From a virus (lineage: Duplodnaviria; Heunggongvirae; Uroviricota; Caudoviricetes): 2,349 nt of DNA. A model generated the notes under the pieces. The model saw only the letters and a list, made by a program, of their open reading frames with translations. It made no database searches and was not told the origin of the DNA. The DNA lies in the IMG/VR virus record IMGVR_UViG_2698536428_000011; one strand, given 5' to 3'. The translations under genes and the position numbers were made by a program. Below, one piece after another: positions 1-2,349 of the stretch (position 1 is its first letter; each line of letters begins with the position of its first letter).

Positions 1-555
1 TCATTTATCTCCGACCGGAAACTTCTTATACAAAGTCGATACGCCAACATCATAAATGATCGCCACCTTCTGGCGAGGAACTCCTGATGCAATTAGTCGC
101 CCGGCCTGCGCCCATTGTTCTGGTGTAAGTTTGGGACGACGTCCACCAATTCGTCCCTGTGCGCGAGCAGCTTCCAGTCCAGCTTTTGTTCGTTCAACAA
201 TCAGTTCTCGTTCCATTTCAGCCAGGGCACCCATCACATGAAAGAAAAAGCGCCCCATTGGGGTACTAGTATCAATTGAATCCGTCAGACTACGAAAGTT
301 GATGCCTCGTTCGCGCAACTCCTCAACCAGAATGACCAGATGCCGCATACTACGCCCCAGCCGATCCAGCTTCCAGACAACCAGAGTGTCACCTGCCGAT
401 AATGTCCTGAGCAGTTTTTTCAGTCCAGGCCTTTCGGACTTTGTACCGCTTATCTTGTCTTCAAAAATCAGCTCGCATCCTGCACAGTTCAGCGCATTAC
501 GTTGTAGATCTGTGTTCTGGTCATTTGTTGACACACGTACATAGCCAATAAGCAT
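1..555 (-). CDS. pin: Serine DNA invertase, Pin/Gin/Cin/Hin family site-specific recombinase
   Basis: ORF track 1..591 minus. Translation has the serine-recombinase N-terminal catalytic motif GYVRVSTNDQ (Ser codon at 529..531) and a C-terminal helix-turn-helix-like region (GRRPKLTPEQWAQAGRLIASGVPRQKVAIIYDVGVSTLYKKF). Start placed at ATG 553..555 (MLIGYVRVS...), which has GGGAG 7 nt upstream, rather than the in-frame ATG at 589..591. Stop TGA at 3..1. Symbol given from recalled similarity to e14 Pin, not from a search. Confidence 0.9.
   Translation of the reverse strand: MLIGYVRVSTNDQNTDLQRNALNCAGCELIFEDKISGTKSERPGLKKLLRTLSAGDTLVVWKLDRLGRSMRHLVILVEELRERGINFRSLTDSIDTSTPMGRFFFHVMGALAEMERELIVERTKAGLEAARAQGRIGGRRPKLTPEQWAQAGRLIASGVPRQKVAIIYDVGVSTLYKKFPVGDK
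405..475. promoter_or_regulatory. Candidate Fis-dependent recombinational enhancer inside the invertase 5' coding region
   Basis: In Hin, Gin and Cin systems the enhancer lies within the 5' part of the invertase gene and has two Fis sites about 48 bp apart. Here GCAGTTTTTTCAGTC (411..425) fits the G-N13-C, AT-rich-centre Fis pattern, and a second A-tract element (457..472, GTCTTCAAAAATCAGC) sits about 47 bp away but matches only partly. Position and motifs are suggestive only. Confidence 0.3.
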
Positions 556-609
556 GGTAGATCTCCCTGACAAAAGCAGGAATGATGCCATTTGCTCGTT
601 ATTTCTGCA

Positions 610-635
610 TTTTCATAAACGTTGGTTTGGGAGAA
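610..635. repeat. Inversion crossover site, invertase-proximal (pix/gix/hix-like 26-bp site)
   Basis: Imperfect dyad TTTTCATAAACG-TT-GGTTTGGGAGAA. Its right half-site is the exact reverse complement of the left half-site of the site at 2326..2349. The 16-mer TTGGTTTGGGAGAAGC (622..637) recurs inverted at 2324..2339. AAAC/GGTTT arms around a 2-bp core are typical of Hin-family crossover sites. Confidence 0.75.
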
Positions 636-995
636 GCGGCAAAACGAAATGTGGGAACAGGGGAAAATCAGATACCGGACATGGCTTCATTTAGTGGGGT
701 GAGGGATTATTACGGAAAACAACTTTTGCCAGGAGGGTTGATACTTCAGTGGCTGACGATTCCATCAAGTGCAGCAGCCAAAGCTGTAACACTGAATAAT
801 GGTAATTATCAGCTGTCAGGCTATAAATGGCCCCAGTCATTTGGTGTCCTGTTTGCTGTGTTTGCTACAAAAGTTTCTGGCTCGACTAACGAAGCATATG
901 CAATCTCAGTTAATCGTCACTCTACCGATGTAATTGTCACCTGGAATGCCCGTAAGGCTGATGATGTCCACATTTTAGGAGTTGGGAAATTATGA
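610..995 (+). CDS. Tail-fibre C-terminal variable cassette, silent copy (Sv'-like); no independent start expected
   Basis: Plus-strand frame is open from the crossover site (ORF track starts at ATG 582 in the invertase leader) to TGA 993..995. The crossover site encodes the junction peptide NVGLGEA, matching LENLGLGEA on the other arm. Ends in an ATGA stop/start overlap with the downstream Tfa-like gene. By analogy with Mu S/S' and e14 it would be expressed only after inversion fuses it to the constant fibre N-terminus. Confidence 0.65.
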
Positions 996-1411
996 AAATG
1001 AAATGGTCCCCATCTGTTCAGGGATTTTTCTCTGAAAATAACAGCGATATTCCCGATGATGCTTTCGATATTGAAGATGCTCTTTATTATGAACTTATGA
1101 ATGGTCAGAGTACGGGGAAAATTATTATCAATAACCCGGATAACTACCCTGTACTTACTGAATATCCAGCGAAGACACAGGAACAGGAAATAGCTGAAGC
1201 GGAGGGAATGAAAAGTATACTTATTGAACAGGCCAACGAATACATGAACAGTAAGCAATGGCCTGGTAAAGCCGCTATTGGTCGTCTGAAAGGTGAGGAA
1301 CTGGCGCAATATAATTTGTGGCTGGATTACCTGGACGCACTGGAACTGGTCGATACTTCCGGTGCGCCAGATATTGAATGGCCTACGCCTCCGGCAGTTC
1401 AGGCCAGATGA
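992..1411 (+). CDS. Tail-fibre assembly protein (Tfa / gpU-like chaperone), silent-cassette copy
   Basis: ORF 992..1411, 139 aa. ATG overlaps the upstream stop (ATGA at 992..995), with AGGAG at 976..980. C-terminus ...[19 protein letters not shown] carries the conserved Tfa C-terminal motif (VDTS-APDIEWP). N-terminal region ([23 protein letters not shown]...[14 protein letters not shown]) resembles Tfa-type chaperones. Confidence 0.8.
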
Positions 1412-1646
1412 CGTCCGGCGCGGTGCTGGTATCTGATTCCATCACCGCGTCGATATTACCAACATCATATTCAGTCATTTCCGGTTCCGGTGGTGCTATA
1501 AACTCTCCGTCAGAATAGAACCAACCGACGCCTGCATCTATATCATCAATATTTATAATTTCGCAGTTAGAGAATAAATCACCCTCTCCATCCCAGATAA
1601 TAATATTTTTCACCACGCCATGTTCAATCAGAGCAAAATTACTCAT
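1383..1646 (-). CDS. Short Tfa-like tail-fibre assembly/chaperone protein, copy in the currently fused cassette
   Basis: ORF 1383..1646 minus, 87 aa. ATG overlaps the stop of the upstream fibre frame (TGATG), with GAGGAG 8 nt upstream. C-terminus ...[18 protein letters not shown] carries the Tfa C-terminal motif. Much shorter than typical Tfa proteins, so the functional call is tentative. Confidence 0.6.
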   Translation of the reverse strand: MSNFALIEHGVVKNIIIWDGEGDLFSNCEIINIDDIDAGVGWFYSDGEFIAPPEPEMTEYDVGNIDAVMESDTSTAPDVIWPELPEA

Positions 1647-2349
1647 CAGGCATACTCCTCAACAATAACTATTCCCGGGGCACCGTCACCTCCCGATTGA
1701 GCCTCACTTCCGGCAGGTGCGCAGGCTCCGCCTCCGCCAGCACCAAAGCCCTCAGCTTTACCACCACCACGTCCGCTGAATGATGAAGAACTTGCACCAC
1801 CTATACCGCCTGAACCTAGTGGTGTATCCCCCCCGGTACCACCTGCAACAGCTTTAACAGAGATAACCATTGCTCCTGGTGTTTTTGCACTACAGCGAAA
1901 TGCTCTTAGTACAGTACCGGACGATGTCGGACTGGCACCCCATGAAATACCCTGAATATATGATGTGTTTGCAGATGCTCCCCCCGCGCCACCGCCTGTA
2001 CCACCCGGTGCAGTTATCAGGGAACCGAAATAAGTTGTGCCACCTTCACTACCTGAATTTCTTCCGGCTCCCCCCCTTTACCTGCAGCACCGATAATAAC
2101 GTTGACTTCGAAATCATTATCAACCTCGAAAAATGCTTCAATAAATGCACCGCTCAATCCAGCTCCGGCTGTTGCCTGCTGATTTGCTGTTGTTTCAGGA
2201 ACCCCACCGCCGCCGCCACCGCCACCAGAGGCAATGACCCTTATCTTTTTTGTCCCTGGTGTTGGGATATATTTTCCAGAGCTTTTAAAAATATTCGTGT
2301 TTAACAAACGACCAGAGAATCTGGCTTCTCCCAAACCAAGGTTTTCGAG
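1646..2349 (-). pseudogene. Tail-fibre C-terminal variable cassette (Sv-like), partial at window edge, reading frame broken at a G7 tract
   Basis: One minus-strand frame is open from the window edge through the crossover site (LENLGLGEARFSGRLLNTNIF...SGGGGGGGGV...GAAGKGGEPEE...) to TGA at 2019..2017. A second frame is open from 2077 to TGA at 1648..1646 and encodes Gly-rich fibre-like sequence (...TAPGGTGGGAGGASANTSYIQGISWGASPTSSGT...GGTGGDTPLGSGGIGG...EEYA) coupled to the Tfa-like gene. The frames meet at G7 on the minus strand (C7 at 2070..2076); one extra G would give a continuous cassette of about 234 codons. Could be a true frameshift, programmed or slippage-based decoding, or a homopolymer sequencing error. 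Confidence 0.55.
2326..2349. repeat. Inversion crossover site, invertase-distal, truncated by window end
   Basis: TTCTCCCAAACC-AA-GGTTTTCGAG (last 2 bp of the 26-bp site would lie beyond 2349). Its left half-site is the exact reverse complement of GGTTTGGGAGAA at 624..635, placing it in inverted orientation to the 610..635 site. The minus-strand fibre frame reads through it in frame. Confidence 0.75.

Follow-up and report, generated by a model that had tools for sequence, protein, structure and literature searches.

A one-base-short G run splits the fused tail-fibre tip gene of an invertible host-range module in an Escherichia coli prophage

The invertible fibre module and its prophage

The window analysed here, by which we mean the whole 2,349-nt stretch of DNA, is the reverse complement of NZ_AP045181.1 near position 1379230 (from position 6001 onwards of the locus we call L001), in E. 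coli JNEC-KY208, a clinical STEC O91:H14 isolate (PMC13534694). The source is a prophage of ~40 kb with a contractile tail, located between yfhL and yfhH, whose gene order runs from the integrase through replication, lysis, head and contractile-tail genes to the baseplate (J/gp47, Phage_Wedge1). Across the 43 kb checked of the JNEC-KY208 prophage, frameshifted or pseudogene annotations were found in 0 of 56 features, and the prophage looks otherwise intact.

The window itself is a host-range module, namely a Pin-type invertible segment that carries two opposed cassettes, each consisting of a fibre tip and a chaperone. Its features are as follows, in window coordinates:

1..555, minus strand: pinE-type serine DNA invertase, 184 aa, intact (Resolvase PF00239, E 1.1e-51, and C-terminal HTH_7 PF02796, E 3.4e-14; annotated pinE, WP_000904973.1)
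582..995, plus strand: silent alternative fibre-tip cassette (weak Gp53-like_C match; phrog_2557)
617..637, no strand: crossover site, invertase-proximal inverted-repeat arm (21 nt, 95% complementary to 2324..2344)
992..1411, plus strand: tail-fibre assembly protein (Tfa) of the silent cassette, 139 aa (Caudo_TAP, E 2.6e-23; phrog_188; annotated WP_000782981.1)
1383..1646, minus strand: 87-aa gene, putative mini tail-fibre chaperone (weak C-terminal Caudo_TAP match, E 0.0054; phrog_14370, phrog_3792)
1646..2077, minus strand: Gly-rich tip cassette, 3' part, displaced by one base; residues 204-343 of the intact fibre (reading frames)
1828..1834, minus strand: second G run (G7) in the same gene, the internal comparison for the variable G8 site (constant in clean assemblies)
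2017..2349, minus strand: Gly-rich tip cassette, 5' part, in frame with the constant N-terminus (reading frames)
2070..2076, minus strand: G7 homopolymer (C7 on the plus strand), one base short of the consensus G8 (homologue comparison)
2204..2227, minus strand: (GGT/GGC)8 block encoding Gly8 (sequence)
2324..2344, no strand: crossover site on the constant-region side, other inverted-repeat arm (21 nt, 95% complementary to 617..637)

This layout has the elements of a serine-invertase switch: the recombinase lies beside the segment, the crossover sites (617..637 and 2324..2344, at a distance of 1686 nt) are inverted relative to each other, the cassettes are opposed, and both orientations exist among genomes. 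The coding part that the silent cassette would contribute to a fusion spans the crossover site at ~617 to position 995. On the other side, the constant 5' part of the fibre gene occupies L001 5674..6024, of which the portion outside the window (5674..6000) encodes 109 aa. The Gly-rich cassette abuts this constant part and is the one currently joined to it, so that the cassette with the frame break described below is indeed the fused one, as an earlier note on this DNA had stated.

Several smaller observations concern the module's genes. The pin ORF reaches 12 codons further upstream than annotated, to an ATG at 591 that overlaps the start of the silent-cassette ORF; annotation starts the gene at 555, with the conserved motif MLIGYVRVS. 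The 87-aa gene (minus strand) and the 139-aa Tfa gene (plus strand) are convergent, with 3' ends that overlap by 29 nt (1383..1411), and the last ~20 residues of each product resemble the Tfa C-terminal motif, while phrog_14370, a PHROG of unknown function, matches the first 56 aa of the 87-aa protein. A promoter and terminator scan returned nothing exceeding shuffle expectation.

The Gly-rich cassette, at least 97% identical and flanked by the same crossover sites, is present in three phage backbones (loci L001-L013): the Phage_Wedge1-type myovirus at yfhL represented by the window's own locus, e14-like elements with YmfQ/StfP (L002, L003 and L013), and P2-like prophages, where gene I and the sheath gene flank it (L004-L012). 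Among these backbones the constant N-terminus varies in length from ~100 to ~450 aa, and tip cassettes evidently move between phages as modules.

A frame break within a single 343-residue fibre

On the minus strand, the frame entering at 2349 begins LENLGLGEARF..., continues as LENLGLGEARFSGRLL...GAAGKGG, and then runs into an out-of-frame 17-aa tail, EPEEIQVVKVAQLISVP, before ending at a TGA at 2019..2017, with a TAA immediately after it at 2016..2014. The downstream frame has its final upstream stop (TAA) at 2080..2078, is open from 2077, and ends at the TGA at 1648..1646, which overlaps the ATG of the 87-aa ORF in the arrangement TGATG. At the G7 run the zero frame reads AAA GGG GGG GAG, whereas the normal G8 version reads AAA GGG GGG GGA. 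Adding one G at the run in silico gives a single continuous cassette of 234 aa, reading ...GAAGKGGGAGRNSGSEGGTTYFGSLITAPGG... and ending in the TGATG. As sequenced, the truncated fused product is 219 aa long, with the break at residue 203, and in broken alleles an orphan 74-aa ORF (1870..1646) gets called. The earlier note had placed a frame break at the G7/C7 run (2070..2076), with the entering frame stopping at 2019..2017, the downstream frame opening at 2077, and one extra G sufficing for a continuous fibre tip; the reading frames bear out every one of these positions and statements. Close homologues depart from the window exactly at this run (G8 vs. G7), so the position of the break on it is not a matter of chance.

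Four lines of evidence identify the two frames as one gene. The repaired fused protein, at 343 aa, is 100% identical to a protein present on 67 public contigs (P0001). The Pfam family Gly_rich_2 (PF21722) gives one match to the repaired cassette, at residues 28-231 and profile positions 9-224 of 226, which scores 32.8 bits against a gathering threshold of 24.3 and spans the break; as sequenced, this domain is divided between the two frames. Alignments of the repaired cassette to PHROG tail-fibre families reach the extreme C-termini of those families, and an AlphaFold2 model places residues 121-343 in one beta-rich domain with pLDDT mostly 85-97. Foldseek with the modelled residues 121-343 of P0001 retrieved the cyanophage Pam3 fibre (7ypx_A, E 3.8e-10) and also the Bxb1 tail tip (9d93).

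As a side observation, weaker Foldseek matches (E ~1e-3) related the tip domain to the glycine-rich/TNF-like ligand-binding domain of the human ALK/LTK receptor kinases. None of the NCBIfam models covers the fibre, the chaperones or the silent tip. Searches with the cassette DNA among deposited phage and plasmid genomes gave no match, nor did tblastn of the cassette against phages, for which low-complexity masking is the probable cause.

The other half of the module has no such break: the silent cassette, its Tfa and pin are all intact. In-silico inversion at the crossover sites produces an open fibre of 236 aa that differs by one amino acid from the protein of L017, a locus in which the same prophage is found naturally in the inverted state. 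At the level of reading frames, this bears out the earlier claim that nothing is broken in the silent cassette and that a complete fibre could be had by inversion. The companion claim, that the fused cassette is truncated and uncoupled from its chaperone, stood in part. The product is cut to 219 aa, and the TGATG coupling is lost, since ~370 nt separate the premature stop from the 87-aa gene; strict dependence of that gene on coupling, on the other hand, did not stand, because it has its own GAGGAG Shine-Dalgarno sequence 8 nt upstream of the ATG and therefore need not be silent.

Two further sets of genomes bear on orientation. In UC4315 (NZ_CM168048.1, locus L009), reportedly a mutant of UC4224, the cassette lies beside the recombinase and is silent by annotation, while UC4224 (NZ_CP104472.1) and UC4316 (NZ_CM168047.1) were read as fused solely from the query start of their matches; if that fused state holds, the segment appears to have inverted between the UC4224 parent and its laboratory derivative UC4315. 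Orientation taken from the query start of a match proved unreliable, as the silent L013 locus starts at query position 2, and such assignments were kept out of the statistics. Separately, in the commonest fused arrangement with an intact G8, represented by L025 (4587..4940; GCA_025526875.1), pin diverges after ~77 codons and no resolvase gene is called, so that this lineage seems locked in the Gly-rich orientation.

Tract length and its history across genomes

Next, we compared the length of the run across genomes. Among 35 complete E. coli genomes that carry the cassette, 23 have G8 with identical flanks and a further 6 have a site of G8 length with one mismatch to the G8 query; G7 is found in 4 (JNEC-KY208, OkiPb01677, C21 and 89-3156), and the remaining 2 are messy. 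A pattern scan open to any run length gave G8 in 14/14 hits, made up of IMG/VR records (9/9) and metagenome contigs (5/5). Taken over these unbiased samples, the tract is in frame at 43 of 49 sites (29/35 complete genomes and 14/14 viral or metagenome contigs). With G8 length in 29/35 genomes and 14/14 contigs, G8 is the normal and ancestral state, from which the window has lost one G. The earlier note had considered both G8 and G5 as possible ancestral lengths, and the 35 genomes and 14 contigs point to G8.

The one-mismatch genomes are UC4224, UC4315, UC4316, ECE218, ECE228 and Z1322HEC0005. In UC4315, where the letters were read, the site is GGTGGGGG, produced by a synonymous G-to-T change (GGT), and this interruption should stabilise the frame against slippage.

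Broken alleles also occur in other public assemblies. Only a broken gene leads gene callers to predict the 74-aa orphan ORF (P0135); 50 contigs and 110 index blocks carry it, and at the ten such places that we read, the run was G7 in eight and G10 in two, the latter in SPAdes-style metagenome assemblies; G10 is likewise out of frame. The exact 219-aa truncated product is on 6 contigs, a figure whose comparison with the 67 contigs of the intact protein is lineage-biased, as 20 of 24 read contigs with intact P0001 are the one truncated-pin arrangement for which L025 stands. For annotation, the 219-aa and 74-aa ORFs that appear in dozens of assemblies should be taken as the two halves of a single 343-aa fibre.

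Cassettes that are at least 99% identical differ in run length, with G7, G8 and G10 all represented, and we used linked polymorphisms to count the changes. Within the backbone of the window's prophage, two SNPs separate haplotypes X and Y. All X loci (the window, L016, L020, L021 and L022) have G7; among the Y loci, G7 is found in L015, L023 and L017, the inverted one, and G8 in L025-L029. Haplotype Y is probably ancestral, because all other backbones agree with it at one of the two SNPs. If the run went from G8 to G7 once and the SNPs arose afterwards, all G7 isolates of this backbone are accounted for. Recurrent slippage inside the window's backbone was accordingly rejected as a reading: G7 is here a clonally inherited allele, and inversion has occurred since, as in L017.

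Because one event explains the window's own backbone, independent events were counted across backbones only. Others are seen as G7 in P2-like backbones (fused in L011, silent in L018) and as G10 in a variant backbone (L019, L024), and G7 in total spans three backbone/orientation contexts. These comparisons give at least three independent events at one site, in both directions, which is a modest number. The two G runs nearby, G7 at 1828..1834 and G6 at 1980..1985, do not vary in clean assemblies.

Two additional patterns were noted. An apparent rule that the run is broken only when the cassette is fused, drawn at first from five broken alleles that were fused and five silent ones that were G8, was refuted by the silent G7 alleles of L017 and L018. 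In L017 the Gly8 block is also longer by 6 nt (GGTGGC, two extra Gly), inserted in frame at what corresponds to window position 2227, so that the fibre gene shows repeat-length variation of a second kind.

Probable slippage at the run, competing explanations and known systems

We consider it probable that replication slippage at a mutational hot spot has given rise to a heritable null allele of one of two receptor-binding tips. At least three events at one site and in both directions, next to neighbouring G7 and G6 runs that stay constant, argue for a length-dependent slippage hot spot, and slipped-strand length variation, which the earlier note had listed among several possibilities, is supported by the G7, G8 and G10 alleles. 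In the sequence of steps we propose, the G8 run in the Gly_rich_2 tip gene would lose one G, most likely by replication slippage, shifting the frame after residue 202 and bringing in a stop 17 codons later. What is left is a 219-aa stump made of the constant part plus roughly one third of the tip domain; with ~60% of that domain lost, it is presumably non-functional, and the remaining 432 nt of the gene would be left untranslated or weakly translated. The G7 allele is heritable, as several independent assemblies share it on one haplotype; a reverse slip could in principle restore G8, and Pin-mediated inversion would swap in the intact 236-aa alternative fibre together with its Tfa.

A much less likely and weakly supported reading is that the run is an evolved contingency locus, in which G8 has been selected as a reversible ON/OFF switch of the Gly-rich tip on top of Pin inversion. 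This would spread the bets of a lysogen population, or of a burst, over three states: fibre A, fibre B and no fibre A. Such a locus would be an in-frame homopolymer of ~7 or more with length polymorphism among near-identical sequences, and both features are found here: the G7/G8/G10 polymorphism is recurrent and bidirectional, occurs in near-identical cassettes of several backbones, and affects the longest run only, the nearby G7 and G6 runs being stable in clean assemblies. Precedents include tracts of 7-11 G in Fletchervirus receptor-binding protein genes and contingency loci in T2/T4 (PMC12633550; PMC10877375). Over-representation of the tract beyond composition, however, was not seen in shuffles, in homologues at 40-50% identity or in interrupted alleles. 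When synonymous Gly codons of the fibre gene are shuffled, 17% of trials contain a G run of 8 or longer (P = 0.17), so that a long G run is unremarkable in a gene so rich in glycine; the GGG triplet is not conserved across the protein family; homologues at 40-50% identity have no run at the site, and 3/4 of them are without any G run of 6 or more; and synonymously interrupted alleles such as that of UC4315 exist. In addition, G7 seems fixed in a clonal haplotype rather than flickering, no OFF-to-ON reversion is documented, and most tracts in the unbiased samples are in frame (the 43 of 49 given above).

Ordinary decay of a defective prophage, with the lost G as the first of many inactivating mutations and the run playing no special role, is in our judgement unlikely. 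During lysogeny, prophage structural genes are not under selection, and it fits this explanation that G7 is clonally inherited in the window's backbone and that pin is truncated in a related lineage. The rest of the prophage, however, has no pseudogenes from integrase to baseplate (0 in the adjacent 43 kb checked), and decay, another of the possibilities in the earlier note, is not evident there. Moreover, the same site has been hit independently in other backbones, also in the opposite direction (G10), which indicates a site-specific hot spot and not random decay.

We regard it as very improbable that G7 is a sequencing or assembly error, in which the true genome would have G8 and a long-read assembler would have under-called the homopolymer. 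Homopolymer errors of long reads do typically run from G8 to G7, and four noisy assemblies (89-3156, C21, ET761 and PCP06235) have several homopolymer deletions in the same gene, this run included; these are probably error-laden, whereas those of JNEC-KY208 and OkiPb01677 are not. The JNEC-KY208 genome is a Hybracter hybrid assembly of Illumina 2x150 and ONT V14 reads (PMC13534694), its G run is the sole indel in the cassette relative to the consensus, and frameshifted genes are absent from the adjoining 43 kb. The exact truncated protein and identical G7 DNA also recur in independent assemblies, SPAdes-style drafts among them, and L016, L021 and L022 are 100% identical to the window across the full 1.7-kb invertible segment, G7 included. 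A short-read-polished assembly and the same G7 allele in draft assemblies therefore leave little room for the sequencing error that the earlier note had allowed for, although formally the culture may contain both G7 and G8, or the consensus may be an artefact. As a control for homopolymer calling, we considered and rejected an intergenic G8 in L001 (9496..9503, between the prophage end and yfhH), since that run is itself length-variable among E. coli genomes (matched spans of 67-72 nt for a query of 71 nt).

Least probable of all is programmed recoding, in which -1 ribosomal frameshifting or transcriptional slippage would let G7 be read through, so that the gene makes a truncated as well as a full-length fibre by design. 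The shift needed is indeed -1, in agreement with the earlier note, and a G7 run can permit low-level P-site or RNA polymerase slippage, so that incidental slippage at a low level may occur. The zero-frame context quoted above, however, lacks a canonical X XXY YYZ heptamer; folding of the 85 nt downstream is not more stable than that of shuffled sequences (z = +0.59); and the out-of-frame arrangement is the minority. With no frameshift signal and an in-frame G8 as the rule, we reject programmed recoding.

Taken together, these results suggest that the pseudogene annotation of this prophage tail fibre reflects a real and recurrent slip at a G8 run, not an artefact or general decay, and that the phage retains an intact alternative fibre one inversion away. 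In this locus, phage biology gains a candidate that is cheap to test, namely a receptor-binding protein of a temperate coliphage that may vary through a homopolymer; most documented examples so far come from Campylobacter phages, with T-even phages adding others in different genes. If the run were a contingency locus, inversion and slippage switches would be stacked on one host-range module, with at least three adsorption phenotypes; if the tract is merely a hot spot, the result is ordinary.

The nearest relatives of the module as a whole are the Gin/Cin/Pin/Hin switches, which act on the G segment of Mu, the C segment of P1 and the P segment of e14. Like these, it has a serine invertase beside a segment of ~1.7 kb, inverted crossover sites, and two opposed cassettes of tip plus Tfa that fuse alternately to a constant N-terminal gene part. 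Unlike the classic examples, it pairs a Gly_rich_2 tip with an 87-aa mini chaperone, has a short constant part (109 aa), shares its cassette among three phage backbones, and carries the frameshift as an extra layer.

For the break itself, the closest parallel is the stf gene of phage lambda PaPa, where a frameshift relative to Ur-lambda abolishes the side fibres while the phage remains viable (Hendrix & Duda 1992, as cited in PMC12617516). In both cases, a one-base frameshift splits a fibre gene into two ORFs upstream of a chaperone gene; the lambda mutation, by contrast, is fixed in a laboratory lineage, whereas here the change lies at a G8-run site, recurs among wild isolates, and touches just one of the two tips that inversion can bring into use.

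Homopolymer-driven frameshifts are known from other phages. In T2/T4, homopolymer runs in ORFs give reversible polymerase-slippage frameshifts (Gomez, Barrick & Waters 2025 preprint, PMC12633550), and the same work reports that homopolymers of 6 or more are under-represented in coliphage tail-fibre genes (0.77x). Those phages are lytic, with loci in agt and rIIA, while the run described here is in a prophage tail-fibre tip. Fletchervirus phages of Campylobacter have hypermutable polyG tracts in their receptor-binding genes (Sorensen et al. 2021, Cell Rep 35:109214, as cited in PMC12633550 and PMC10877375). The window's run resembles these tracts in its size class (7-11 G), in its place within a receptor-binding or tail-fibre gene, in that slippage would shift the frame and turn the protein ON or OFF, and in having natural length variants. 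It differs from them in belonging to a temperate coliphage prophage, in being a single variable run, in a tract that is unconserved in homologues, and in a gene that is also under an inversion switch. Set beside all of these systems, the sole unusual element of the locus is a slippage-prone run stacked on an inversion switch.
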